DNA from: a virus
Length of the DNA stretch: 64,000 bases
Reading direction: 5' to 3' (one strand)
IMG/VR virus record: IMGVR_UViG_3300045988_129305
Coordinates: 25,078 to 89,077 of that record
Both the position numbers and the translations under genes were made by a program. Each line of letters opens with the position of its first letter. Position 1 is the first letter of the stretch. Below, piece after piece: positions 6,127 to 64,000 of this stretch. Under the pieces are notes generated by a model, which saw only the letters and a list, made by a program, of their open reading frames with translations, had not been told where the DNA came from and searched no databases.

Positions 6127-6489
6127 TTGGCGAATAGCGCATGGAAAATTAAAGTCGGCGTTGACCTTGACACTAGCGAGATTGATGCTAAACTACAAGA
6201 AAAGCAAAGCAAGCTAACAGTTAAAGCAAGTGGTGCTGAAGAAGTTGGGAAGTTAGGTAAAGCGACAGAGGAAGCCGATAACAAGGCTAAAGCTGCCGGT
6301 TTAACTTATCAACAGTATAGACTTATATTAGATAATTGTGCCAAGGCAATAACTAGTATGGCTGAACAGACAAAGAAGTTAGATTCTGCACAAACAGAGT
6401 TCAAGAAAGTCTCCGATTTGTCTGGCAAGTCATTAGATGATTACACTAAAAAGCTTGCCGATATGGGTAAGCAAGTTGGACGTAGCGGT
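6127..6489 (+). CDS. tail tape measure protein, exon 1
   Basis: TTG start 11 nt after AAGGAG. Coiled-coil N-terminus ..FKKVSDLSGKSLDDYTKKLADMGKQVGRSG. Exon end GCGGU(6489) can pair with intron GCCGC (6502-6506) as P1 with U.G. Confidence 0.7.
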
Positions 6490-6851
6490 TAACTTTTCTG
6501 AGCCGCCGTGATGGGATGGTAAACCAGCACGAAGAATAGCTCCTAAACCCTTGAAAGCCTCAAGAGCCTTGCCACCACAACATAAGGATGAGATAGGCCT
6601 AAGTGTGAAAAATATGTAGATTTGCTCCACATAATATAAAATTATGCAACTACATGGTGAGAAATCAATAAAACGGCAAGGATAATATATGGTCGAAAGA
6701 CCTAAGTATTATGTCACGAATATTATATAATAAACGGGACAAAAGGGCAGATTGGGCGCGAAGTCCTGATGAGGGATGTGTCAACAGACTATACAGAGCA
6801 GTCCACCAATTTATAGGATGAAGAAATAGTCGATAAGTAATTGAAAACTAC

Positions 6852-7113: not shown

Positions 7114-7409
7114 TTAATTAGTCAGAAATGATTGAGGCTGCAACTAAATAATTTGGTTGAGTATATGGCGACATATATAATGAATGGGGTGAATTGCTGG
7201 GAAGCCCTTAGAGTCTTACATACCGAAGTGTGACAATTGTAAGAATTGGGTAATCAGCAGCTAAGCCAATATTGAGTTATTGGAAAGTCCAACGACTAAG
7301 ATTGAAATAATATCTGTAGGATTCAAGTGAGTCCGAAGTGCTCCATATCTATTGATAAATAGATAAAGATATAGTCTAAACTTATGTGAAAATATAAGAG
7401 GTGTTTATA

Positions 7410-8216
7410 ATGAGAAATAATAAATTAAAAGAAATTCAAGCATGGTGTGAAGGGCACAATATAAAACCCTATAATATTCGCAATGTTGTTCGAGGTGGCA
7501 AGACAGAAATAAAACTCACTTGTTCCTGTAAAGAATGTGGAGAGCGATACGATATTATGTGGTGTAGTTTGAAAGTCCAGACCTATCCGGGGCTATGTAC
7601 TAAATGTGCGCATAAGCGCTCTCAAGAAGGTCGCAGACTGTCGGCTCAAAAGGTAATAAGCTTGTTTGAAAAGTATGGCTACAAAGTCCTTACGCCTGTT
7701 GATAGAATTAAACCGATTGGTAAACAGCAGCTTTATAATAGGTCTATTGTTACGATTCAAGATAAATATGGAACTACTTATGATATATGTTGGAACAATT
7801 TTCACAATAGATTACAGTATTATCTTGATATAAACGATGGTGGACATTGTGCTGAGGGTGATAGAGATTTAAGTTGTTTAGAGCAAAAAGTAGCTGATTA
7901 TTTAGACGAATTGTGTATAAGTTATAAGCGCGAATTTAAGTTTTCTGATTGTCGTGGCAATAAAAGAATGTTGCCTTTTGATTTTTGCCTGAATTATGAT
8001 AAACCTAATAGGTTATTAATCGAAGCTGATGGGGAGCGACATTATAAAGAATATTTTGTTGAATTGCGCAAATATGATAAAATAAAAGATTATTATTGCA
8101 ACTCTCATAATATTCCCTTACTTAGAATCCCTTATTGGGAGTTCGACGATGATACTTACAAACAAAGTATAGATAATTTTATAAACACTAATAGTAGTAA
8201 CGATACTATTGAATAA
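7410..8216 (+). CDS. intron-encoded homing endonuclease, Vsr/PD-(D/E)xK (EDxHD-like) type with N-terminal zinc finger
   Basis: ATG 7410 after AAGAGGTG. CSCKECG..CTKC zinc finger. The C-terminal PFDFCL..LLIEADGERHY..IPLLRIPYWE matches the Vsr/DUF559-like nuclease core. It sits 3' of the intron P7 motif and ends 6 nt before the proposed 3' splice site. Confidence 0.75.
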   Translation: MRNNKLKEIQAWCEGHNIKPYNIRNVVRGGKTEIKLTCSCKECGERYDIMWCSLKVQTYPGLCTKCAHKRSQEGRRLSAQKVISLFEKYGYKVLTPVDRIKPIGKQQLYNRSIVTIQDKYGTTYDICWNNFHNRLQYYLDINDGGHCAEGDRDLSCLEQKVADYLDELCISYKREFKFSDCRGNKRMLPFDFCLNYDKPNRLLIEADGERHYKEYFVELRKYDKIKDYYCNSHNIPLLRIPYWEFDDDTYKQSIDNFINTNSSNDTIE

Positions 8217-23747: not shown

Positions 23748-25640
23748 TTGATTACACTTGAAAGACCGGCATATTATGACTCAAAAAGATATAATGAATA
23801 TTGCGGATTAAGTACTGATGATAAAACGATCGTAAGCGCTTATAATGGCGATGAGTTCTATGAAATCAATACTGGTAAATATTACAAATATAATCAAGTT
23901 TCAAATGAATGGGTAGAACAACCTGAAGATACAGCGGCTATTGACACCGGATTACCTCCAATTACTGATGAAACAAGCGGACATTTTTTAAGTAATGATG
24001 GTAATGTTACTCATTGGCAAGCATTAGCATCGAGAAATTTTGTTATTCAATTAACAGAAAATGTCAATAATAAAACTTATACCGCCGATAAGACTTATGT
24101 TGAAATCAAATCGGCGTTTGATGCAAAAGAAAATTTAGTTGTTAGATTAAATAGTAGCGAATTTAGCTTGATGAATGTTGAGTTCGCTAATGAGAATGAA
24201 GCTGGTTTTACTTTTGGTTATACTGAGGTTAGATTAGATGGACAAGTTATTGAAACAAGGTCTATTCAATATACTCACAGCAATGGGGCAGATAATTGGT
24301 CTGATAGCGATGACACTGCCGATTTGTCTGAATATCTATCTTTGTCTGGCGGAATATTAAGTGGCCGGTTACATTTAGCCGACAATCCTACTGAAGATTT
24401 AGAGGCGGCCACTAAGTATTATGTGGATAACCACAACATGATTGTTCGCTTTACATCAGATGCGGTGGCAGGATTTAATGCAGATAAATCTATTCAAGAG
24501 ATCGTAGCCGCTTCTTTAGCGAAAAAATATATAAGTGGTGAACTTAATGGCGATGTATATGGCTTGACTTCTATATCGGCTACAGAAGTGGTGTTTACTA
24601 GAGTTGACGAAAATAAGGTGTCTACGATTAGCTATTTAAATGGCGCATGGTCTAAGTCTGAGCAAACATTATTGCCACTTAAAGGTGGCAAAATGGATGG
24701 CAATATCAACATGAATAGCAATTCTATTACAAGTATACAAAAATTACATGTTGACGGTTCTGCTCCGATTTATATTGGTTCTGTTATTGAACCGGGCATT
24801 AATGCCCCACGGCTGGTTGGCTCTACAGGCGGCTCAGCAGCATTTGTTAAAGCATCTTCTCAGAGTGAATATGTACCAGTTGCTGTTGGAACTCCAAGCG
24901 CACCAGATCACGCTGTTAATTTACGGCAATTAACCCAAGAAGTATTGGCAGATGCGCCTACGGCTGATGGTTGTATTGCTAATAAGAAATATGTTGATGA
25001 TTGTGTTGCTCGAAAAGTACCATTGGTAGCGGCTAATCCGGGTGAATTAAAGGCATATCTCCAAAATGGTACTAAGCCTGATGTTTGTTTAGTATCTGAT
25101 GCTGGTGGAGCACAATGTATAGCAAGATATACAAGTGATGGGCATTTAATTGATACTCACGCTCCTACGGGCGATAATCAATTAGCGAATAAAAAATATG
25201 TCGATGATAAATTAGCGGCATATAGTAATGTATCTGGCAGTTTACAAATAGCTGGCGATTTAACGGTAAATGGCTCTGCCGCTGTTATTAAAGCACCTGT
25301 TAATAATGTGGATATTCCAAATAAGGGCTATGTCGATACTCAGATTAATTCGGCTGTGGCAGACACAGTAAGGAAACAATCTATAGAAGTTGGAGCTAAT
25401 TCAAGTGTTGATGTTACTTTATCTAACGGCGTTTATTTAGTAACTACTTCAGATAATGCGCATGGTGGCTTAACTTGTGTAGCTGTTTATCCTGATGGCG
25501 AAACAATTACTGGTTTAGTCAATCTGAATGGTTGGAAATGCGAGAAAATAACTAGTGGTAAGGGCATTAATTTAACTAATGTCGTAGGCACAAGTATGAC
25601 TGTTTATATAACCTCAATAGGTGAGGGTACTTATAGATAA
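23748..25640 (+). CDS. tail fiber-like protein
   Basis: 630 aa, TTG start after AAGGTGAG. Fiber motifs LSLSGGILSGRLHLADNPTEDLEAATKYYVD, LPLKGGKMDGNINMNSNSI, and repeated (A/P)NKKYVDD. Confidence 0.75.
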   Translation: MITLERPAYYDSKRYNEYCGLSTDDKTIVSAYNGDEFYEINTGKYYKYNQVSNEWVEQPEDTAAIDTGLPPITDETSGHFLSNDGNVTHWQALASRNFVIQLTENVNNKTYTADKTYVEIKSAFDAKENLVVRLNSSEFSLMNVEFANENEAGFTFGYTEVRLDGQVIETRSIQYTHSNGADNWSDSDDTADLSEYLSLSGGILSGRLHLADNPTEDLEAATKYYVDNHNMIVRFTSDAVAGFNADKSIQEIVAASLAKKYISGELNGDVYGLTSISATEVVFTRVDENKVSTISYLNGAWSKSEQTLLPLKGGKMDGNINMNSNSITSIQKLHVDGSAPIYIGSVIEPGINAPRLVGSTGGSAAFVKASSQSEYVPVAVGTPSAPDHAVNLRQLTQEVLADAPTADGCIANKKYVDDCVARKVPLVAANPGELKAYLQNGTKPDVCLVSDAGGAQCIARYTSDGHLIDTHAPTGDNQLANKKYVDDKLAAYSNVSGSLQIAGDLTVNGSAAVIKAPVNNVDIPNKGYVDTQINSAVADTVRKQSIEVGANSSVDVTLSNGVYLVTTSDNAHGGLTCVAVYPDGETITGLVNLNGWKCEKITSGKGINLTNVVGTSMTVYITSIGEGTYR

Positions 25641-33556: not shown

Positions 33557-34012
33557 CTATTTAATATTAAGATTTTCCATAAGCTGTTTTGTTTTAGCCT
33601 CTGTTTCGGCATTATTCTTTTCAATTTCAGCGCGAATATTTCGGATTAAATCACTCATTGCAACATTTAAGTCTCTTAGCGCATTGCGTTTTGCTTGCTC
33701 TTTAGCAACGCGATTAAACCATTTTTTATATTTGTAAACTTCGCCATAAGTAGTAAAATGAAACTCTTGTCCGCTGGCAATATAATAGGCCGATTCGTAA
33801 TAAAGTAGCCATTTCTTGGGATTAAGATTATAAAAAGAGAGAAATTGAGGAAAGGTTAAGCAAGGAGCGAACCTCTTGTTTTCCCTTGTTTTACAAAAAT
33901 ATAATAAAAAATAAATAAGTTTATCCTCACATCCCAATATCAAATAGATGGAGTATACACCAACGAAAATGAGACCGAATAGTCCAAGTAATGCTATTGT
34001 TTTACCTATCAT
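33557..34012 (-). CDS. hypothetical membrane-anchored protein
   Basis: 151 aa with an N-terminal hydrophobic helix TIALLGLFGLIFVGVYSIYLIL. Confidence 0.55.
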   Translation of the reverse strand: MIGKTIALLGLFGLIFVGVYSIYLILGCEDKLIYFLLYFCKTRENKRFAPCLTFPQFLSFYNLNPKKWLLYYESAYYIASGQEFHFTTYGEVYKYKKWFNRVAKEQAKRNALRDLNVAMSDLIRNIRAEIEKNNAETEAKTKQLMENLNIK

Positions 34013-35810: not shown

Positions 35811-36021
35811 CAAACTTAAAATTCCTATTCTTATCTATTAGTTCTTTTAATTCAATATAAGGTTGCTTGCCACATATCTTACAAGTATATTCCCACGGCT
35901 TATCCATATCATATATTTCTTTACCAATAGGCATACCACAATAACGGCATTTTAGAGCCAATGATTTACCAAGTTTATCAGTTTTCTTGACTTTCTTTAG
36001 CCAATTTCTTGCTCTGCTCAT
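35797..36021 (-). CDS. zinc-ribbon protein
   Basis: 74 aa, CRYCGMP..CKICGK. Overlaps the PP-loop gene end by 44 nt. Confidence 0.55.
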   Translation of the reverse strand: MSRARNWLKKVKKTDKLGKSLALKCRYCGMPIGKEIYDMDKPWEYTCKICGKQPYIELKELIDKNRNFKFDENE

Positions 36022-37054
36022 TTTCTTTCTCCTTATACTTTATACGATATTCATCTCGTTTGGCTTCATCACCGTCATTCCACCACTTTACGTTGATGAA
36101 ATCAAGGACTTTAGCCATACCAAGCCCTTTGTCAGGAACCCATTTACCAGATTCATCGTAATTGCCACCACGCATACAATAGTCATAGAGTTGTGGGTGT
36201 GTTTGAGCAAGGGTTTGAAAACGGTTTGGTTCTTTCTCAAGATGACATCCATAACCACAAAATACACAACCAGTCCGTTTATAATCAGTAAAGTAAAGAA
36301 TCCCATTAGTTTCTTTTAGTTCACCATAGACAGGCGCATAAGATAGATTGTATTTTTGGATGTATCGCAATACATCCTGTTCTGTCCAAAAAGCCATTGG
36401 TGTAGATATGAGAGCTTTTAAGTTAAAAGCATTATAACCTTGCAATAGCCATTGTTTTTCTCGTCTTTCGCTTTCGCAGGTCATCACGGCTGTCATTGGG
36501 TGTAAGTTGGTTCTTTTGTAATAATGTTTTAATGGTTCTTTTTTCATTTTATTGCAACAATTATCCCCAATGTTAAAATCGGCACTGGCACAATAATGAT
36601 ATTTATTTGGGAGCTTCATAGTAGTAGCCTTTCGCCCAGTAGCGGTAATGCCAGTTAATCTTAATCGCCTAGTTTGTTCATTGTGAGATGTTGGATGTTG
36701 CAAGTCCCAAATCATACGAGAACATTGTTTAGATATTATAGGATAACCGAATTTTGTAATAACTTCTCCGAATATCATTTTAGGCTTAACGATTTCAATA
36801 TTATTAAAAGTTTTGACAAACGCTCGGATTTCTGGAAATTCAAGCCCAGTATCACTGAAAACGCCTAAAACATTAGGATATGTACGTCTTACTAAATCAA
36901 GTAATACAGTAGAATCTTTACCACCTGAAAAACTCACACACACTTCCCCATTCCAACTTTCATACCACTCAATTATCCGGGCGGTAGAAATCTGGATTTT
37001 TTCTTCAAGGGGCTTGGATTGTAGTTCTCTCAAATCATCTTTTGTATGGCTCAT
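35978..37054 (-). CDS. PP-loop ATP pyrophosphatase of the PAPS-reductase family (DndC/SspD/TtcA-like)
   Basis: 358 aa. VCVSFSGGKDSTVLLDLV (SGGKDS PP-loop) and a C-terminal Cys cluster RTGCVFCGYGCH. Confidence 0.85.
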   Translation of the reverse strand: MSHTKDDLRELQSKPLEEKIQISTARIIEWYESWNGEVCVSFSGGKDSTVLLDLVRRTYPNVLGVFSDTGLEFPEIRAFVKTFNNIEIVKPKMIFGEVITKFGYPIISKQCSRMIWDLQHPTSHNEQTRRLRLTGITATGRKATTMKLPNKYHYCASADFNIGDNCCNKMKKEPLKHYYKRTNLHPMTAVMTCESERREKQWLLQGYNAFNLKALISTPMAFWTEQDVLRYIQKYNLSYAPVYGELKETNGILYFTDYKRTGCVFCGYGCHLEKEPNRFQTLAQTHPQLYDYCMRGGNYDESGKWVPDKGLGMAKVLDFINVKWWNDGDEAKRDEYRIKYKEKENEQSKKLAKESQEN

Positions 37055-38136
37055 TTTACATACAACTCCTTAAAATTCTTAATACCTTCAACCAACGCCT
37101 CTACATCCTCAACGTTACTATCCTCGCCAAAGCTAACCCTAATAACCTCACTGGCTTCATCGTTATTCAGCCCATAGGCGTTTAGCACTCGATAATCATG
37201 CTTTTCAGCGCAAGCAGAACCACCAATAGATACATAGATTTGCTTAGATGCGAGGTACTGTTGGAGGGCATCTGCATTAAATCCGGGCAGACGAATGGCG
37301 TTGATTGCTAAAGCAAAAGGCTTGTCAGCTTCACTCGCCGGTACTGTTGGAATAAAACTATGTTTTATATTTGCTCTATCCAACTCTCTATCAAGTTCAT
37401 TAACTAAATTAAACCATTTGGTATCTCGTTCAATCAATGCTTCTTTATCGCAAACCTCCTCTACCGCTTGAGTCAAAGCCAATGCACCGGTAAGATTAGG
37501 TGTGCCGTGTAGCTTAAAACCATTGAGCCATTTGTCTAATCCATCAGAAATCCACATAGCACCAATGCCAAGCTCAGTGCCTAACTTATGACCGCTCCAA
37601 ACAGCACAGTCACACCATTGGTCGATGTTGGTCGGAATTGGGACTTTACCAATCATAGTTGTCATGTCACAGATGTAAAAAGCACTATACTCATGGCAAA
37701 GCTTGCCAATTTCTTCAACTGGAAAAACTTCACCCGTAAGATTGTTAACACCTTGCCATATCACAAACGACTGGTCATAACTTTCAGGGTCATTTTTATA
37801 AGCAATCAATAAATTTTTCATCCAGTTTATATTGTCGGACATATTGTCTGCATATCTAAAAAAACTATCATGTTCATAAACAGAGCACAAAACATTTCGA
37901 AAAAAAGTTTCCTCGTTGATAGCCGTCATCAAATTCTCAATCAACTGACTGCTCGTACCACCAAAAACAACCTTACCAGATTTGGCTCCAACGGCCTTTT
38001 TTATTCTATCCTCACACTTCTTTAACAGTTGCTTTTCCTTGTAAGCATAGTTGGCATTAACATTAAAAAACGAACCATAATTAGAGCAAGGATATTTAAC
38101 TTTAGGGCAAGCAGCGGCATAATCCAAATAAACCAT
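37051..38136 (-). CDS. cysteine desulfurase (class V aminotransferase, NifS/IscS-like)
   Basis: 361 aa. SGHKLGTELGIGAMWI (PLP lysine) and GGSACAE (catalytic Cys loop). 4-nt overlap with the PP-loop gene. Confidence 0.8.
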   Translation of the reverse strand: MVYLDYAAACPKVKYPCSNYGSFFNVNANYAYKEKQLLKKCEDRIKKAVGAKSGKVVFGGTSSQLIENLMTAINEETFFRNVLCSVYEHDSFFRYADNMSDNINWMKNLLIAYKNDPESYDQSFVIWQGVNNLTGEVFPVEEIGKLCHEYSAFYICDMTTMIGKVPIPTNIDQWCDCAVWSGHKLGTELGIGAMWISDGLDKWLNGFKLHGTPNLTGALALTQAVEEVCDKEALIERDTKWFNLVNELDRELDRANIKHSFIPTVPASEADKPFALAINAIRLPGFNADALQQYLASKQIYVSIGGSACAEKHDYRVLNAYGLNNDEASEVIRVSFGEDSNVEDVEALVEGIKNFKELYVK

Positions 38137-40073: not shown

Positions 40074-41474
40074 TTATATGTATATTTTTTGATTTTCTTG
40101 AGTACAAATTACTCTTGCTGATTTACCTTGAGATATAAGTTCGTCTTGTAGTGTATAGGCAAATTTTACTTTATCCTCATAATTACCATGTACTAATGCA
40201 ATCTTATTATATCGGCATTGATTGGCATAATAATCTATCAGCTCTTCATAACTGGCATGAGACGAAAATGAACGAAGTTCAGTAATATTTGCATTATTGG
40301 GTACCAATACACCATCAATCATTACCTCTTTTTGGCCAGATTTAATTTGGCTTGCAAGATTATTATCACCGGCATATCCAACAAATATAAGATGATTGTT
40401 TGAATGTGGTAGAGCTGTTTTAAGATGGTTTATTATCCTCCCACCTTGAAGAAATCCAGACGCGCTTATAATCACACAATGAGCATTAGATGCTTGTAAC
40501 AAAACAGATGATTCCCATGAATCAATAACTTTTAAATTATCCCAATGACTTATTTTATCCCATTCAAAAGAATCGGGCCAAATAGAATTGATTCTACTTG
40601 CTAATGGACTATCAAGATATACAGAGAACGGAAAAGCTAATTTGTTCCTATCCCAAAGATGATATAACACAGTCAATATCTCTTGAGTTCGGCCTAAAGA
40701 GAATGTTGGAATTAGTATCTTGCTATATGCGTTTATAATAGATACCAATTTTTCTTCATCTTTGGGACGGTCTTTTATATTATTAGGTCGAGCTGGGCTA
40801 TTATATGTATTTTCGCCTATTAGTACATCGATAAATGGCAATGATTGCTTATTATTAACATAAGGTCGAGATGCATTGCCACCTATATCACCAGTATATC
40901 CTACTCGTTTAGTTATATTACCCTCTTTCAATTCGACTATAACTTGTGCCGAGTTGATAATATGACCGGCTGGATAATAAGTAAAACTAATACAATTATT
41001 GATTTTATATGGTTTATTAAAATCAACTTCTATACATCTCATCAATGCCTTAGATATATCATTGGCTGAATAATATGGGCTTGCTTTACGTCCATGTTTA
41101 GCTTCTATCTTTTGGCAATCAGATGTAAGAATTTTTAAGCTATCATCCCATAATAATTTAAGGAAATCAACAGAGCCTTTAGGAACATATACATGAGCAT
41201 TACAGCCTTTAGCGAATAGAGCCGGTATAAGCCCACTATGATCTATATGCACATGAGATAAAATAATATAATCTATCTCATTGGCTTTAATTGATTCTAT
41301 TTGATTCTTATTAGCTTGCTATACCGATACTATATCGCCGCCTTGTACCATACCACAATCAAGAAGTAATGAATATTTCTTAAATCGCAAATGATGCATT
41401 GAGCCTGTTACATCAGTAGATGAGCCGCCTATCATGTGTAGATATGGCCGACTTGTGCCATTACCTTTTACCAT
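40074..41474 (-). CDS. metallo-beta-lactamase / beta-CASP nuclease interrupted by one in-frame TAG (41319-41321)
   Basis: ATG 41474 abuts the upstream stop (TAAATG). N-terminus MVKGNG..LLLDCGMVQGGDIVSV, then TAG, then QANKNQIESIKANEIDYIILSHVHIDHSG (HxHxDH). The track ORF begins only at GVG 41252 inside the HxHxDH motif. Confidence 0.75.
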
Positions 41475-58256: not shown

Positions 58257-58543
58257 GTTTTTCTTTACTCACACGCATCTATAATATCTCCCATATCACA
58301 AAAAGTTCCCTGCCAATGAAGGTAATAGGAGTAAGCCCTAAACTCAGAAAAACTTGTATCTTTATTCATTTCTATTCTTCTCTTTCCTTATTTCGTCTAC
58401 AATATCTATAACTGCTTCTACAATTATTCCTATAAGCCAAATCACAGGCCAAACCCCAAAACTAAAATACAATTACTAACATATCTTTCACTGGTATCTG
58501 GTTCATGTGTTGCTTTCCAAAAATATGTCGTTTTGATCATGTT

Positions 58544-58765
58544 TTACCTCTCAACCTTTTCGTTGAATTTTTCAGCCAATTTGTCGGCATCAACCAACCG
58601 TATTGATAGTGCCTCCATCCATTTTTCACCGCTTCCCAAAAACAGCTTGAGCAGCTCAATGTCGCACAGTACCCATACGCCGATTGCCATCAGATCCGCA
58701 GCCGTTGTTGGCGCGGCCACCCCTGCCGCACAAGCAAGCGCGGCGAAAATTGTAAAACATATCAT
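58544..58765 (-). CDS. small membrane protein on a GC-rich patch
   Basis: 73 aa with an Ala-rich helix FAALACAAGVAAPTTAADLMAIGVWVL. The local sequence is much more GC-rich than its flanks. Confidence 0.5.
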   Translation of the reverse strand: MICFTIFAALACAAGVAAPTTAADLMAIGVWVLCDIELLKLFLGSGEKWMEALSIRLVDADKLAEKFNEKVER

Positions 58766-58977
58766 TCTCTCACGTCCATTCTCGCGCCATAATTAGGACA
58801 GTAATTCTTAGAATTGTCCACGCCAAGGCTATTTTTTTGGTTCATTTCGGCTTCACATTGTGAGCAAATGACAAAATCGCCATCAGATATCCATCTCCCA
58901 TACACCACCGGTTCATAATCTTTTTGAATAGCAATACGCTTAAATTCACTGTCACTTAGTTTAATGTTGTCAGCCAT
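58762..58977 (-). CDS. zinc-ribbon protein
   Basis: 71 aa, CSQC..CPNYG. Confidence 0.5.
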   Translation of the reverse strand: MADNIKLSDSEFKRIAIQKDYEPVVYGRWISDGDFVICSQCEAEMNQKNSLGVDNSKNYCPNYGARMDVRE

Positions 58978-59216: not shown

Positions 59217-60068
59217 TTACCATAACTCCTTTCTCATAGCATTTTCAACATCATCTTCAGACGATTTAATATATCTATTAGTTGTCTGTATATTACTATG
59301 TCCAAGCATATCACGAATAGTAGCTACATCAACGCCATTTTTATTAGCAATAGTAGCACACGCAGCTCTAAGCCAATGAGGACTGATTTCTTTCCAATAA
59401 CTCAATCCAGCCCTATATGCTATCTGCTTAAGACTCTTACAAGCATTAGCCTCATTTATAACATTACCTTCAAACGATTCAAACAACATGGTATGCTGAC
59501 GACCATTGGCAATTTCATCGGCTATATACTTATCTATATACATCATTGTTTTCTCATTGATATATATTTTACGTTGCTTATTGCCTTTACCTGTAATGAT
59601 TATATCATTAGTTTTACCAGCTCTAAATTCTTCATATTGTTTCATCGTAATGCTATTCATTTCGGCAAAACGAAGCCCAGTTGAAGCCAATATAGATATT
59701 ATTGCTCTTGCTCTCGGCGATTCAGTAGCGGCTATCATCTTAGATACATCCTTAGCCGTCATGCACTGTTTGACTTTAGGATTATTTTTGAGCTTTTTAA
59801 CTTTATCAAATGGATTATCATCAACCATATCCATATCTTCAAGCCAAACCCAATAGCTCTTTATAGCACTGAGCCGAAGATTGATGCTACTTGCACTCAA
59901 GCCAGTCAATGTAGCCTTATAACCAATCAATTCGGCATTGCCGATTTCTTCTTCAGGCTTATCGCAGAACCGCATAAACTCATTTATGTACTTAACATAA
60001 TTTTTTATTGTCTGCTCAGATTTCTTATCGGCTCTAAGTGATTTAATATACTGGTCTATTCTATTCAT
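59217..60068 (-). CDS. int: tyrosine recombinase / integrase (XerC/D-like)
   Basis: 283 aa. SAM-like N-domain, ..GLRFAE.., HWLRAACAT and LGHSNIQTTNRYI (R-H-R-Y catalytic set). Confidence 0.9.
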   Translation of the reverse strand: MNRIDQYIKSLRADKKSEQTIKNYVKYINEFMRFCDKPEEEIGNAELIGYKATLTGLSASSINLRLSAIKSYWVWLEDMDMVDDNPFDKVKKLKNNPKVKQCMTAKDVSKMIAATESPRARAIISILASTGLRFAEMNSITMKQYEEFRAGKTNDIIITGKGNKQRKIYINEKTMMYIDKYIADEIANGRQHTMLFESFEGNVINEANACKSLKQIAYRAGLSYWKEISPHWLRAACATIANKNGVDVATIRDMLGHSNIQTTNRYIKSSEDDVENAMRKELW

Positions 60069-60100
60069 TTTGTTTACCTCCCGCTCTTTATCTTGGTTAT

Positions 60101-60129
60101 ACTATATCACAGATATTTTTATTTGTCAA
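60101..60129 (-). promoter_or_regulatory. sigma-A-type promoter upstream of int
   Basis: On the - strand: TTGACA (60129-60124), 17 nt ending CTGTGA, TATAGT (60106-60101). Confidence 0.6.
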
Positions 60130-60134
60130 TAACA

Positions 60135-60179
60135 AAATGAGCAAATCCCTAAATTTTTTCTTAGAAGATTTGCTCATTT
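60135..60179 (-). terminator. rho-independent terminator closing the tRNA/ncRNA unit
   Basis: 13-bp perfect stem AAATGAGCAAATC (60135-60147) / GATTTGCTCATTT (60167-60179). On the - strand it is followed by TTTTGTTATT. Confidence 0.7.
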
Positions 60180-60231
60180 ATGAAAAGAAAGGAGGTGAAC
60201 AATGAAAGCTTCCCCACAAGCCATCACCGAC

Positions 60232-60313
60232 TGGAACGAGAACGAGGAATCGAACCTCAAAAATTATATACTAGAGTTCCTATGACTTATATATAACCCA
60301 CACCAGTTCTCGC
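60232..60313 (-). ncRNA. tRNA-like element A (canonical acceptor/T-arm/CCA, non-canonical anticodon arm)
   Basis: 82 nt. GCGAGAA(C) pairs with (G)TTCTCGT, T-arm GAGG-TTCGATT-CCTC, 3' TCCA. The central region gives only a 6-bp TATATA/TATATA stem with a 17-nt interior. No 5-bp stem with a 7-nt loop could be drawn. Confidence 0.45.
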
Positions 60314-60319
60314 ATATAA

Positions 60320-60434
60320 GCTCCATAATCAGAATCGAACTGATTTCCTCTCTCGGACTGTCTGTTATCATTAAAGAGCGACTTTAATGTTTTCTCACGA
60401 CCAATTAACAAGTATGCCCCTTACACCAATGGAG
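60320..60434 (-). ncRNA. tRNA-like element B (T-arm and 6-bp acceptor, about 115 nt, 8-bp central hairpin)
   Basis: CTCCAT pairs with ATGGAG. T-arm ATCAG-TTCGATT-CTGAT. Central hairpin CATTAAAG-TCGCT-CTTTAATG. No encoded CCA. Too long and irregular for a standard tRNA. Confidence 0.3.
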
Positions 60435-60759
60435 ATAACGCTACACTATCGTAGTAGCCAACGCTCATTGTTGTTCATCTACGCCTCGAATAAGGCTGTT
60501 TAGAATCAGAGATTCGATATTTGGTTAGATGCCTCTTGCATGAGTAGCTTGAGGTTAATTAGTCAAATTTCATCCATTAATCGCAATTAAATAGTATTGA
60601 CTAACTGCATTTGGCAATTACTGACAGACCAGCTTTACACTTATCTGCCCTCGGTTTGGCTGTGGAGAGGATGCCCAACATCATACACACAACTGTCTTG
60701 GTCACTTTCGTTGCCAATCTTTAGCTTAACGGACTAAAGATGAATCTCAGTAGATACCG

Positions 60760-60834
60760 TGGCGGGGGCAATAGGACTCGAACCTATAATGTTGGAGTCA
60801 AATTCCAATATGTTACCAATTACATCATACCCCT
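60760..60834 (-). tRNA. tRNA-Gln (anticodon UUG)
   Basis: 75 nt with encoded CCA. D-arm ATGT/ACAT with AATTGGTA loop, anticodon arm TTGGA-ATTTGAC-TCCAA, T-arm ATAGG-TTCGAGT-CCTAT. Discriminator G73 and an unpaired A1.C72, both consistent with Gln identity. Confidence 0.8.
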
Positions 60835-61365
60835 ATAGTTATTTTTTTTGCCCCAACCCCATAAATCGAATAGGCCAATGGTGCGCCCAAACATCTACCG
60901 TTCTGAATTGCCTTTAAGCGCTATTAGCACATTCAACCGGATAGACAGCCTTTTATCTATACGCACGTTCCCAATATAAAATTAACTATTTATTTCTCTC
61001 TGTAAATATTAAATAGTTGATTTGTTCAGTGCTCTTGGCCTTCGAGCTATCCTATGAAGTTGCTGTTCCCCAACTAATAGATTCCTTCACGTGCAATCTC
61101 ACGGTATAGTCTTGGCGTGTTTTAAGTGCTTCTTCTAATTCGCATTCACTATACTAACATCAGCACTATTTTAATTAGCCGTTAAGCTAAGTAAAACCAA
61201 TCAAGGAAGGTAAACCATATTTTCTCTAACCTATACAGAAATATGGAAAGAGGTTTATCATGTCTCGCCTGATTTTGAGCGGATAGTTTTAAGCTTTACT
61301 ATCAAAACTCCTTGTTTTTACCGTTTATAGGGTCGTTAAAACAAGTCAAAATCACACAGTCCCTT
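60835..61365 (-). ncRNA. 531-nt ORF-free spacer, candidate large structured RNA (family unknown)
   Basis: Lies between tRNA-Leu and tRNA-Gln inside one promoter-to-terminator unit. No ORF of 60 aa or more on either strand apart from a tRNA-antisense artefact. Several 6-8-bp hairpins by eye (61214-61246, 61281-61304, 61310-61346). Confidence 0.35.
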
Positions 61366-61450
61366 TGGTGCGGAATATGGGACTCGAACCCATAAGCCTT
61401 ACGGCATCCGAGCTTAAATCGGATGTGTTTCCCAGTTTCACCAATTCCGC
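61366..61450 (-). tRNA. tRNA-Leu (anticodon UAA), class II
   Basis: 85 nt with encoded CCA. Acceptor GCGGAAT/ATTCCGC, anticodon arm TCCGA-TTTAAGC-TCGGA, long variable arm TGCCGTAAGGCTT, T-arm ATGGG-TTCGAGT-CCCAT. Confidence 0.9.
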
Positions 61451-61463
61451 TCATTTCATCGAT

Positions 61464-61492
61464 ATTATATCACACAATTTTTATTTTGTCAA
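61464..61492 (-). promoter_or_regulatory. consensus sigma-A promoter directly upstream of tRNA-Leu
   Basis: On the - strand: TTGACA (61492-61487), 17 nt ending TGTGA, TATAAT (61469-61464). The predicted start is about 7 nt before the tRNA 5' end. Confidence 0.75.
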
Positions 61493-61583
61493 GAGGAAAT
61501 TTTATTTTCCAGAACTTTTATTTCTCACTGTGCCATCCACCGCTTTATCATGACAAGAACTTTATTTCCTCTTGACATCATGC

Positions 61584-61612
61584 ATTATAACATATCAATT
61601 TTGGTTTGTCAA
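61584..61612 (-). promoter_or_regulatory. second consensus sigma-A promoter in tandem
   Basis: On the - strand: TTGACA (61612-61607), 17 nt, TATAAT (61589-61584). Confidence 0.7.
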
Positions 61613-61633
61613 GCATTATTTTTAGAAATTTTA

Positions 61634-61804
61634 TTAGCACCAATAATGTGTACTAATTTTGCCATATCTTTCTGGATGTAACCGATTATTCTCATAACTG
61701 TTATGCTTATCAACTATATAAATAAGCAGACAACATATAAACAATACCAGAATTGTAATCCCAAATATTGCCCCAAAAATTATTTCCATTGCTGTCGGTG
61801 CCAT
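61634..61804 (-). CDS. small membrane protein (56 aa, not in the track)
   Basis: ATG 61804 after AAGAAGGATGG. MAPTAMEIIFGAIFGITILVLFICCLLIYIV.. First gene after promoter 61835-61863. Confidence 0.5.
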   Translation of the reverse strand: MAPTAMEIIFGAIFGITILVLFICCLLIYIVDKHNSYENNRLHPERYGKISTHYWC

Positions 61805-61834
61805 TTAACCATCCTTCTTTACTTTGTTAATTGA

Positions 61835-61863
61835 ATTATATCACATCAAATTCAATTTGTCAA
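61835..61863 (-). promoter_or_regulatory. consensus sigma-A promoter
   Basis: On the - strand: TTGACA (61863-61858), 17 nt ending TGTGA, TATAAT (61840-61835). Confidence 0.7.
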
Positions 61864-61872
61864 TACTAAATT

Positions 61873-62076
61873 TTACATTCTTCCCACTATTTTATGTCGA
61901 GCTATATTTCTATATGATTCAACGGTATTGGCATTAAGTTGTTTAATCCGAATATCAGAATTTATAGCATCCAGTTTAAACCTATAATCTTTGTATTCAC
62001 CGCAAACACCATGGCATCCTACAGCTCGATTAGTGCAATTAGCGCACGGTATATTAAGCCCATATTTAGATTTCAT
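61873..62076 (-). CDS. Cys-rich small protein
   Basis: 67 aa, CANCTNRAVGCHGVCGEY. Confidence 0.55.
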   Translation of the reverse strand: MKSKYGLNIPCANCTNRAVGCHGVCGEYKDYRFKLDAINSDIRIKQLNANTVESYRNIARHKIVGRM

Positions 62077-62673: not shown

Positions 62674-62729
62674 TAGAAAAATCAAACTAAAATTTTCAAA
62701 TTAAAAAATAGGGGTCATTATGGACGACC

Positions 62730-62835
62730 ACGAATCTAAATTTCAAAAATCCCGCCCATTTTCGATTCAGAAAATCGAAATCAAAAATCCGAATCTGGAT
62801 TTCAAAAATGGAAGTCGAAAATCGATTTTGAATTT
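62730..62835. repeat. cluster of palindromes and direct repeats built on AAAATCGA / ATTTCAAAAAT
   Basis: TTTCGATT/AATCGAAA (62760-62780), AAATCC/GGATTT (62785-62802) and the 12-bp palindrome AAAATCGATTTT (62818-62829). Direct repeat GAATCTnnATTTCAAAAAT at 62732 and 62791. Confidence 0.7.
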
Positions 62836-62867
62836 AGAAAATACAACTCGTGTATATATGCGAATAT

Positions 62868-63071
62868 TTATTCATTATCATAAACATTTTCACATACATA
62901 TACATAATCACAATCATTTACATTTACACTTTCATCTTCATTGCCACATTCAAATACATTTGCATTAACATAGCCAACATCATATTCATTTTCATGCTCA
63001 TTCACAATTGCATCATCAGCTCCATCAACATCATCATTCAGCGCATAAATGATAAAATTGGACGTCCACAA
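62868..63071 (-). CDS. putative highly acidic small protein (coding status uncertain)
   Basis: 67-aa ORF rich in D/E/N/V/Y that spans the whole CAT-NNN periodic stretch without a stop. TTG start with a weak SD. Confidence 0.35.
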   Translation of the reverse strand: MWTSNFIIYALNDDVDGADDAIVNEHENEYDVGYVNANVFECGNEDESVNVNDCDYVYVCENVYDNE

Positions 63072-63109
63072 TCATCCAGCTTCACCACAGCTTATTGCAG
63101 ATTCACGCC

Positions 63110-63157
63110 TTAACTTGAAATAACACAAAGCTTTACTTATAACTTATTTCAAGTTAA
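63110..63157. repeat. 14-bp inverted repeat (hairpin)
   Basis: TTAACTTGAAATAA (63110-63123) / TTATTTCAAGTTAA (63144-63157) with a 20-nt loop. Confidence 0.65.
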
Positions 63158-63389
63158 ATAAATAAAGGAATGTTAGCCGCCCACAAAATTCCCTGCAAAT
63201 AATGTACATATCAACACAAAATTCCACAATAAAATGCACGATAGGATAACATTAACTCACTTACAACGCCAATTGACCGATTATCACTTAACACACCACC
63301 AGTGCATTACCAGCGAATTTATTCGATTGTTATATATACCTCACGCGATTTTTTCAATTTTCATGTAATACGTTTCGCCCATCCGTACA

Positions 63390-63760
63390 TTTGTCGCAAA
63401 TTTGTAACAATTCGTAATCCTGGCGAAATGCGCGTGTATATGCCCGGAGTTTTAGAAAATTGATGTAATCCGTTAAAGCACTCAACTCAAACTTCAAATG
63501 CTTTAGCCCACTAAAGCGCTAAACTTCACTGTGATGAAGCGCTAATGAGTTAACACACTAACACACTATTGCTTTAGCGTGTAAAAGTAACTTTTTCGGC
63601 ACTTTGAGACCGCCACCCATAAGCTTGACTAATTATCATTAGTCACTAATTGTAACCAAATTGTAATCAATATTAAATTATCAAGGCGCAGAATTGTAAC
63701 TATATAACATTAAAATTGTTACCAGATTTTAACCAACTCAATGCAGCGGATCGCTTTAGG
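63390..63760. repeat. iteron-like short repeats in an ORF-free region
   Basis: AATTGTAA(C/T) at 63648, 63659 and 63692, AATTGTTAC at 63714 and TTTGTAAC at 63401. GCTTTAG at 63500, 63571 and 63753, plus inverted CTAAAGC at 63511. Confidence 0.6.
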
Positions 63761-63933
63761 TCTGCGCACGGCATACTGCATCTACATAAGACATTTATAT
63801 AAATCGCTCTCAGACCGCACAGGATCGCGCGCACCGCATTTTAAGCCGTGACAAATATATCTATACTCCCAAAGCTCAACGCGATTTTAGGCCGGTTTTC
63901 ATGCGTCTCAGAAATAAGCCGCATTAATCCCGT

Positions 63934-64000
<67 letters not shown>

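Follow-up and report, generated by a model that had tools for sequence, protein, structure and literature searches.

Why would a phage place strong promoters ahead of two transfer RNAs (tRNAs) and hundreds of nucleotides (nt) that encode no protein? The question is raised by a locus in IMG/VR virus record IMGVR_UViG_3300045988_129305, of which we analyzed positions 25,078 to 89,077 (the window, 64,000 nt; coordinates below are positions in it unless a relative is named). On its minus strand, from 61612 to 60135, a protein-free unit of ~1.5 kb runs from two tandem promoters, P1 and P2, to an intrinsic terminator, and contains tRNA-Leu(UAA), a first spacer, tRNA-Gln(UUG), a second spacer, and two tRNA-like elements, el1 and el2. 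The original prediction, made from the sequence alone, had described this arrangement, and every feature it named lies where it had been placed. We conclude with considerable confidence that the locus is non-coding and modular and that selection on RNA structure acts on part of it. On balance, we also favor reading it as an early island of tRNAs and small RNAs (sRNAs), composed of exchangeable RNA cassettes and ending in a tail that insulates the adjacent recombinase gene or represses its translation. That a single-stranded tract in this tail would repress the recombinase, by folding back or in trans, is a plausible idea in which we place less trust, somewhat short of calling it probable.

The window belongs to a Firmicutes gut phage related to SPbeta and the large Clostridioides difficile phages. 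Its DnaE-type polymerase is nearest to those of the large C. difficile phages and SPbeta-like Bacillus phages (35–47% amino acid identity), its promoters and ribosome-binding sites are of Firmicutes type, and its G+C content is 36%. As had been claimed, the transcribed strand of the locus carries no credible open reading frame (ORF): those present are at most 50 amino acids long, overlap the tRNAs or lineage-specific sequence, and are not conserved. Across both strands of the locus, ORFs are short and either lack a Shine-Dalgarno (SD) sequence or are not conserved. Internal repeats of the kind that would suggest CRISPR-like or ToxI-like arrays are absent from the locus, in which only the promoters and the T arms recur.

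A fixed layout with exchangeable contents

We gathered related loci through the adjacent gene (59217-60068, minus strand), which encodes a 283-amino-acid XerC/D-type tyrosine recombinase with Pfam Phage_integrase and SAM-like N-terminal domains and served as the syntenic anchor; most relatives came from protein look-ups in Logan and ENA, and runs that contain relatives include SRR26064468, SRR36265356, SRR14160769, and ERZ808275. In the close set (L001/L002/L013, L004, L005, L006/L007, and L008; recombinase 60–97% identical), the interval between a 56-amino-acid membrane ORF and the recombinase keeps one layout, with consensus promoters, tRNAs or tRNA-like elements amid long spacers, a single terminator, and the promoter of the recombinase gene. 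The contents of this interval are hypervariable between phages whose flanks are 80–95% identical. L001 lacks tRNA-Gln, el1, and most of both spacers and has a different 296-nt insert, and the 2.9-kb interval of L004 holds two additional promoters and a 215-amino-acid ORF. Among distant loci (recombinase 32–45% identical), most of those scanned likewise keep a dispersed tRNA array with 100–900-nt spacers upstream of the recombinase. The original prediction had considered long spacers abnormal for a phage tRNA cluster, but in this group they are the rule, and their presence in such distant relatives makes them a trait of the phage group rather than an oddity of one genome.

The earlier count of ~850 nt of extra, unexplained RNA was correct in that the two spacers measure 531 and 325 nt, but these do not form one RNA. 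They are instead a mosaic of short exchangeable modules, in which cassettes differ between close relatives yet recur in distant ones. A search of the spacers for homologues gave a divided answer. In spacer 1 (61365-60835), the segments 61365-61196 and 61021-60974 are common to L001 and L004. The first of these, module A, lies directly 3′ of tRNA-Leu, is ~80% identical in L001, and consists of hairpins S1 (61345-61311) and H2 (61303-61282) and the H3 motif (61257-61199, with its stem at 61245-61207), whose flanks CCUCUUU and UUUACCUUCC are conserved. The second is an AU-rich 9-bp hairpin followed by UUUUAUAU, 92–94% identical in L001 and L004, where it comes directly after the CU-rich H3 flank; it looks like a weak terminator. 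Between the two lies a 174-nt insert (61022-61195; fold z score −1.3), and upstream of tRNA-Gln lies a 139-nt segment (60835-60973), both found in this genome only, with no homologue in any locus or collection searched. The 139-nt segment has a minimum free energy (MFE) of −33.8 on the transcribed strand vs. −18.1 on the opposite strand. We do not claim homology between it and a module shared by L012 and L027, which it resembles only over the short motif AAUAGCG(Y)UUA.

Spacer 2 (60759-60435) is divided in a similar manner. Its 5′ part (60613-60759) is mostly genome-specific, with the exception of a 25-nt hairpin (60743-60719) that is identical in L034. Its remainder, module C (60440-60612), comprises a 10-bp stem (AGUUAGUCAA/UUGACUAAUU), a UGCG-loop hairpin, a CCUC/GAGG stem, and a hairpin with a conserved 9-nt loop, UACGAUAGU, at 60458-60440. 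Module C is 95% identical in L001 and 82–84% identical in L034, a phage whose recombinase is only 35% identical to that of the window. In L034, module C, the 25-nt hairpin, and el1 (75–100% nucleotide identity) also follow tRNA-Gln. Over all loci and collections searched, homologues were undetectable for ~59% of spacer 1 and ~39% of spacer 2.

Other islands are linked in the same way, through the pairs L004-L034, L006-L034, and L012-L027. The non-coding modules concerned, shared by islands of phages that are only distantly related, are 70–86% identical (L004 4734-4866 and L034 2503-2635; L006 4058-4214 and L034 3473-3630; L012 1275-1390 and L027 2815-2929), and the L012/L027 module shows a compensatory change from CUGC/GCAG to CCGC/GCGG. 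None of these three shared modules is in Rfam. A blastn search of the cultured phages in INPHARED matched the tRNAs only. Pattern scans for H3, the trailer described below, and el2 in IMG/VR, JGI metagenomes, and GTDB genomes returned the same two to three near-identical contigs or chance matches, such as one inside coding sequence (L018) and one without extended similarity (L096), indicating that this RNA family is rare in those collections.

We considered and rejected an integron-like cassette array. Cassettes often have consensus promoters of their own (L004, L012, and L027), the recombinase is co-oriented and of the 283-amino-acid XerC/D type, and no repeated attC-like element bounds the modules. 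Separately, the 215-amino-acid ORF of L004 (2943-3590), which has no Pfam family, recurs in the tRNA islands of the distant relatives L028, L030, L032, and L036. It is followed (at 3779-3961 in L004) by a conserved AT-rich stretch full of CAAAG/TAAAG repeats that may be iterons or a binding array.

Conserved RNA structure in the spacers

The shared pieces are local hairpins in which loops and flanks are fixed and stems vary. We pooled 13 helices, chosen by eye from modules with only 2–6 distinct sequences each, and counted, over distinct variants, 38 changes on both sides of a pair, 10 one-sided changes, and 3 disrupting changes. Changes on both sides occurred in S1, H2, and H3; in three parts of module C, namely its 10-bp stem and the hairpins with UGCG and UACGAUAGU loops; and also in the el1 inner hairpin and T stem, the el2 T stem, the trailer hairpin, and the terminator. 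These compensatory changes hold in relatives whose recombinase is only 35–60% identical. The original prediction had named a lack of conservation and covariation in related phages as the outcome that would count against it; parts of both spacers are in fact conserved with compensatory changes.

H3 illustrates the pattern. Its order is CCUCUUU, an 8-bp stem, CUG...GGUYAGAG, the returning strand, and ACCU(U)CC. The stem sequence is CCAUAUUU/AAAUAUGG in the window but becomes CCUCGUUU/AAACGAGG in L004 and ACAAGCU/AGCUUGU in L012. When L012 was withheld from a covariance model of H3 (R1), the model still recovered it at E = 3.4e-4. MAFFT misaligned L012 in H3 as well as the L006-type trailer helix, and a covariance-model alignment and a register set by hand were used in its place. 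Among loops, the module C loop motif, UACGAUARK, occurs in two to three copies within a few hundred nt in L001 and L004, compared with 2.6 expected on both strands of a 64-kb window. Taken whole, the spacers are not significantly stable in thermodynamic terms (z −1.6 to −1.7).

One alternative to selection on RNA structure is that a tRNA array is decaying in a recombination hot spot. Only the two tRNAs would then function, the spacers and tRNA-like elements would be what is left of dead tRNA genes and of accessory genes that were inserted or deleted, and the conservation of some pieces would come from recent common descent or from promoter and terminator signals. Such decay could be expected from the hypervariability of the locus between phages with 80–95% identical flanks, the aberrant tRNAs of relatives that detectors miss, the ORFs that occupy the same place in relatives (215 amino acids in L004 and 255 in L027), and the roughly half of the spacer sequence that is unique and not unusually stable by prediction. 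However, in several helices, changes on both sides far exceed disrupting ones; module C and el1 retain 75–93% identity in a phage whose recombinase is only 35% identical; H3 keeps an invariant loop and flanks despite a wholly rewritten stem; and G·U pairs mark the transcribed strand. Decay would explain the unique half of the spacers and not the covariation, and we regard it as an unlikely account of the locus as a whole.

Another possibility is that the spacers jointly make up a single large, ornate RNA like ROOL or GOLLD. These RNAs are non-coding, abundant in phages, and located next to or around tRNA islands, and GOLLD linkers can contain tRNAs (PMC12286853). Our island likewise adjoins phage tRNAs, and its site and total length of 0.5–1.3 kb are similar (PMC12286853); moreover, phage K makes abundant long non-coding RNAs that adjoin its tRNAs and had been compared with ROOL and GOLLD (PMC9241854). 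Yet the ROOL and GOLLD covariance models gave no match at E ≤ 10 in the 2.1-kb search of 59900-62000, none at the gathering score in the window or 13 distant loci, and none at E ≤ 0.5 in five close loci, so that none of the 18 related loci yielded one. Close relatives delete or replace several hundred internal nt, which does not suit a single tertiary fold, and the conserved pieces are short local hairpins. In ROOL and GOLLD, one multi-pseudoknot fold is conserved, whereas here we find a chain of short, replaceable hairpin modules, and we rejected the idea that they are the same kind of RNA as very unlikely. More broadly, Rfam, searched at gathering and permissive thresholds over the window and the 18 related loci, returned only tRNAs and an unrelated group I intron. 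Applied to the locus as the original prediction had proposed, Rfam and ARAGORN recovered the two tRNAs and no other known RNA family.

A further likeness is to phage T4, in which RNA C and RNA D share transcripts with tRNAs and are released by processing. They too are small RNAs from a phage tRNA region, and their roles are unknown (PMC3014915). T4 tRNA clusters are tight, whereas the modules found here are longer, more numerous, and mosaic, and no sequence relation to the T4 RNAs is expected. In the mechanism that we propose, the pieces between and after the tRNAs would be short, independently folding RNA cassettes that phages exchange with one another.

tRNA-like elements

Downstream of module C lie el1 (60320-60434) and el2 (60232-60313), the two aberrant tRNA-like elements that had been predicted there. 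Both are real and non-canonical. Each combines a 6–8-bp acceptor stem with a T arm of the TTCRANY type, in which all five T-stem pairs form and the loop is TTCGATT. El1 is predicted to form a four-way junction: besides its acceptor stem and T arm, it has a D-like arm and, substituting for the anticodon arm, a long, branched central arm. It has no encoded CCA. El2 has an 8-bp acceptor stem, an 11-bp AU hairpin, a T arm, and a discriminator base followed by an encoded CCA, and has no D arm (MFE −20.6, z −2.0). Neither element has the canonical anticodon arm (5-bp stem and 7-nt loop) together with a D arm. The T-arm motif GTTCGANTC occurs in eight copies in the window vs. 0.95 expected, and only four of these have the full 5-bp T stem, all of them in this locus.

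Standard detectors pass over both elements. ARAGORN called neither at default settings and required relaxed thresholds, and neither reached the 29-bit Rfam tRNA threshold: the best match of el2 was to tRNA-Sec, below threshold at 16.5 bits (E = 7), and el1 had no tRNA-clan match at E ≤ 10. We also rejected a tmRNA or permuted tmRNA, for which relaxed ARAGORN gave only implausible calls spanning about 680–690 nt. The L001 and L004 copies of el2 are 91–95% identical to that of the window, and one compensatory change falls in the T stem; ARAGORN labels the L004 copy tRNA-Leu(tag). El1 is missing from both of these relatives but occurs in L034, where, compared with the window copy, there are two compensatory changes in the inner hairpin and one in the T stem. 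Across the phage group, tRNA look-alikes are common. Further elements that combine an acceptor stem with a T arm, in some cases followed by CCA, lie at L012 4425-4505 and at L006 4797-4860 and 5075-5140, and no detector calls them.

What could such elements do? In MALAT1-mascRNA and the tRNA-miRNA units (TMERs) of murine gammaherpesvirus 68, tRNA-like structures that do not serve in translation recruit RNase P or RNase Z to free a neighboring non-coding RNA. El1 and el2 also stand beside non-coding RNA and, by analogy, are candidate processing handles; those systems are eukaryotic, and cleavage at el1 and el2 is proposed here by inference from their form. We suggest that the true tRNAs and the tRNA-like elements would punctuate the transcript, that RNase P and 3′ maturation nucleases would probably cut at these points, and that cleavage would release the intervening RNAs.

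The 3′ trailer and the recombinase gene

Directly after the CCA of el2, a 52-nt trailer (60180-60231) fills the space between the last tRNA(-like) gene and the same-strand terminator, at which the stretch 60231-60125 ends. Of all the modules, the trailer is the most clearly defined and the most informative. It is made up of a hairpin (60229-60200) and the tract UUCACCUCCUUUCUUUUCAU (60199-60180), which we summarize as UUCACCUCCUUUCUUUU and which is unpaired in all folds of the trailer. The terminator (60135-60179) has the predicted 13-bp stem, with fully complementary arms at 60135-60147 and 60167-60179, followed by the U-tract UUUUGUUAUU. In relatives, it remains 100% paired: both partners have changed in two of its pairs, and a G·U pair in L004 is compatible with the transcribed strand alone. 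The trailer was found in six lineages (the window, L001, L004, L005, L006, and L008), always after an element ending in CCA, although that element varies: it is el2 in the window, L001, and L004, tRNA-Thr in L005, tRNA-Gln in L008, and another tRNA-like element in L006. The order is always NN-CGGUGA, an inner hairpin, UCAUUG, UUCACCUCCUUU(C/U)n, the terminator, and the recombinase promoter.

The strand to which this structure belongs can be read from the hairpin itself. Its CGGUGA...UCAUUG stem contains two invariant G·U pairs, its inner stem covaries (GGCUU/AAGCU vs. AGAGC/GCUUU), and its folding energy is −11.5 to −12.3 kcal/mol for the transcribed strand vs. −4.6 to −7.3 kcal/mol for the complement, which together assign it to the RNA of the tRNA strand. 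In the trailer alignment, the percentage paired and the covariation score were each reached by only 3 of 500 shuffles, favoring structure.

This bears on a different explanation for the conserved trailer, namely that plus-strand AAAGGAGGTGAACAATG is the ribosome-binding site of a 27-amino-acid gene (60202-60285) and that conservation reflects a coding sequence or leader peptide. A perfect SD at ideal spacing to an ATG, both conserved in six lineages, is what such a gene would have. The peptide, however, is not conserved: L001 encodes MKAFP followed by a stop codon, and L006 and L008 encode a short, unrelated peptide after the first residues, antisense to the local tRNA. The best upstream plus-strand promoter is no better than 9/12, the two invariant G·U pairs would there become A·C mismatches, and the complement folds 5–7 kcal/mol worse. 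Because the trailer structure belongs to the tRNA-strand RNA, the plus-strand SD and ATG are explained away, and we rejected this gene as scarcely credible.

The trailer tract is complementary to the SD-to-AUG region of the recombinase gene, which starts 110 nt downstream. It shares UCACCUCCUUUCU with what we take to be the 3′ end of Firmicutes 16S ribosomal RNA (rRNA), as in Bacillus subtilis. The recombinase start lies within 60062-60129 (minus strand), which holds a promoter with an 11/12 match to the consensus (60129-60101) and the translation initiation region GGGAGGUAAACAAAAUG, with the ATG at 60068. Among 945 candidate start regions in the window, that of the recombinase ranked second for the trailer tract and first for the UUUACCUUCC flank of H3, with which it forms 11 consecutive pairs. 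For the trailer tract, it ranked first in L001, L004, L006, and L008. Viewed from the opposite direction, the trailer tract and the H3-flank tract were among the top three in-island sites for the island's own recombinase start region in every island, including L006 and L008, in which the second tract lies on the opposite side of H3. The tract thus has the makings of a predicted seed region, as it is single-stranded, complementary to its target, and kept in relatives, with the recombinase ranking 1 to 3 across six lineages.

Folding predictions point in the same direction. In all six lineages, the MFE fold of the read-through RNA paired the tract with the recombinase SD, with the terminator and promoter enclosed. 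By contrast, the 5′ untranslated region made from the recombinase's own promoter was unstructured in the five lineages in which that promoter was correctly located; the L006 run took a far-upstream promoter. The tract lies upstream of 60129-60101, and the complement of the ribosome-binding site is consequently found only on transcripts that begin outside the recombinase's own promoter. We propose that upon terminator read-through the tract would fold back on the recombinase ribosome-binding site and that the terminated trailer could act likewise in trans. Under this scheme, only transcripts from the recombinase's own promoter would be translated, and strong transcription of the island would hold recombinase output down.

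Two well-studied arrangements have elements of this design. In IS10 and IS50, transcripts that start outside the element fold back to pair the transposase ribosome-binding site, and only transcripts from the transposase's own promoter are translated. The predicted read-through folds resemble this in pairing the tract with the recombinase SD. They differ in that the pairing segment is part of an RNA operon of its own, which is terminated, and in that a terminator and a promoter stand between it and its target; it could also act in trans. In Escherichia coli, the 3′ETS-leuZ RNA lies between the last tRNA and the operon terminator and is a base-pairing sponge for the sRNAs RyhB and RybB. The trailer is likewise the segment between the last tRNA(-like) element and the operon terminator, with which it ends, but it bears an anti-SD-like tract predicted to target an mRNA start region rather than sRNAs.

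Several observations weigh against the view of the locus as a structured RNA island with a recombinase-controlling tail. About half of the spacer sequence has no homologue and folds unremarkably (z −0.7 to −1.3), and the covariation statistics are weak because distinct sequences are few, at 5–7 per module, with helices chosen by hand. The L034 copy of el1 lacks the canonical T loop and the D-loop GG, and its likeness to a tRNA may therefore not be the conserved trait. Of the 24 pairs in the trailer alignment, only 2 show changes in both partners, a number that 52 of 500 shuffles reached, and the trailer itself is confined to the clade with recombinases at least 60% identical, being absent from L010, L012, and L027. 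The recombinase start region ranked only 3 of 62 for the trailer tract in L005, and in the window, a gene starting at 34012 scored better than the recombinase. The match is in part generic, since a CU-rich tract pairs with any strong SD.

Promoters, leader, and canonical tRNAs

A promoter pattern scan placed the two tandem perfect promoters as described, firing leftward into tRNA-Leu(UAA): P1 (61584-61612) is a perfect TTGACA-17-TGnTATAAT, and P2 (61464-61492) is a perfect consensus with an extended TG. The claim that these are the two best promoters of the phage was overstated. The window holds six perfect promoters of the TTGACA-17-TATAAT kind and five with one mismatch (1.5 matches expected by chance), so that P1 and P2 are not uniquely strong; a third perfect promoter (61863-61835) lies 250 nt upstream of the island, and the 11/12 match precedes the recombinase gene. 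The tandem arrangement is nonetheless shared, as L027 (recombinase 39% identical) has the same two perfect promoters immediately before tRNA-Leu(UAA). We suggest that host sigma-A would drive the island as an early non-coding RNA operon and that P1 and P2 would yield one polycistronic transcript.

Between the promoters, a leader (61487-61577, minus strand; MFE −23.5, z −3.9) is closed by a 14-bp outer stem, an inverted repeat that is 100% complementary. The 5′ end of the P1 transcript, UGUCAAGAGGAAAU, pairs over these 14 bp with AUUUCCUCUUGACA, which includes the −35 box of P2. The stem encloses a 63-nt interior that differs among relatives and is itself kept in L001 and L004 and, as 9 bp, in L010. 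It could be a 5′ stabilizer or an operator-like inverted repeat.

The two tRNAs are canonical and have an encoded CCA. ARAGORN found both, and Rfam scored tRNA-Leu(UAA) (61366-61450) at 56.3 bits and tRNA-Gln(UUG) (60760-60834) at 56.9 bits. In the phage, Leu is most often encoded by UUA (37%) and Gln by CAA (67%), and these preferences give both tRNAs an ordinary codon-supply explanation. The proposed P1/P2 transcript would thus carry two tRNAs that read the phage's favorite Leu and Gln codons. As a separate matter, L001 (3133-3216) and L004 (4224-4308) have an aberrant tRNA-Leu(UAA) in place of the canonical tRNA-Leu. Its acceptor stem, anticodon arm, and variable arm are good and its T loop has 6 nt (GUCGAA), and both ARAGORN and Rfam miss the two copies.

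The tRNAs could also be understood as RNA counter-defence, replacing host tRNAs cut by anticodon nucleases, in which case the tRNA-like elements and folded cassettes would serve as decoys for, or inhibitors of, host defences that target or sense RNA. Such a role would account for the strong early promoters and the turnover of cassettes. Phage anti-defence regions are typically hypervariable and expressed early from strong promoters, and tRNA-like elements are numerous across the group. The phage also encodes an RNA ligase and a beta-CASP RNase, which together with the cassette turnover lend the idea some plausibility. Phage tRNAs that evade tRNA-targeting defences have been described (PMC11555353). 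Nevertheless, the locus contains no defence-related protein partner, and codon usage explains the tRNAs equally well, making counter-defence in our judgment rather improbable.

The genes just mentioned lie elsewhere in the window. They comprise the RNA ligase (PF09414; 35002-35643, minus strand), the beta-CASP/RMMBL RNase-type metallo-hydrolase, and adjacent cysteine desulfurase and PAPS-reductase-like genes, with the spans of this group at 40074-41252 and 35978-38136 (minus strand). Links of the ligase, the hydrolase, and the desulfurase/PAPS-reductase-like pair to RNA repair or processing, or to nucleic-acid thiolation, are possible.

Implications for phage tRNA islands

Phage tRNA islands are usually read as devices for codon supply or against nucleases, and the sequence between their tRNAs is ignored. 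In this island, such sequence holds four or more RNA motifs that are conserved, covary, and are listed in no catalogue, plus tRNA look-alikes that may be processing handles. The motifs themselves are new families, and the kinds of thing they represent have precedent. Should our reading hold, RNA cassettes would be exchanged between phages like accessory protein genes, gut-phage annotation would gain new RNA families, and the tRNA-punctuated non-coding RNA operons known from eukaryotic viruses would be joined by an example from a bacterial virus. The 3′ module also provides a concrete, testable hypothesis, in which recombinase translation is insulated or repressed by an RNA resembling the 16S rRNA 3′ end.

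A more ambitious version would treat the locus as a modular RNA toolkit, with exchanged cassettes carried in one early operon and cut at tRNA and tRNA-like sites. In such a toolkit, mimics of the 16S rRNA 3′ end (CCUCUUU, ACCUUCC, and CACCUCCUUUCU) would capture SD sequences, controlling the recombinase and possibly reprogramming host or phage translation. We consider this doubtful at present; if true, SD-capturing cassettes would be a new class of phage regulatory RNA.

Other features of the window

The group I intron recovered by Rfam is a full-length match (79.6 bits) at 7136-7398 on the plus strand; it lies in the region of the structural genes, flanked by ORFs 6127-6492 and 7401-8216. A local G+C peak at 58500-58900 (0.44–0.52 vs. 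about 0.33 around it), downstream of the recombinase gene, falls in a 1.2-kb insertion relative to L013 and contains only small cysteine-rich ORFs. Upstream of the island, 62700-64000 is poor in ORFs, with 18-nt imperfect repeats at 62878-62961, and a perfect (GACA) × 16.8 repeat extends from 63934 to the end of the window at 64000.

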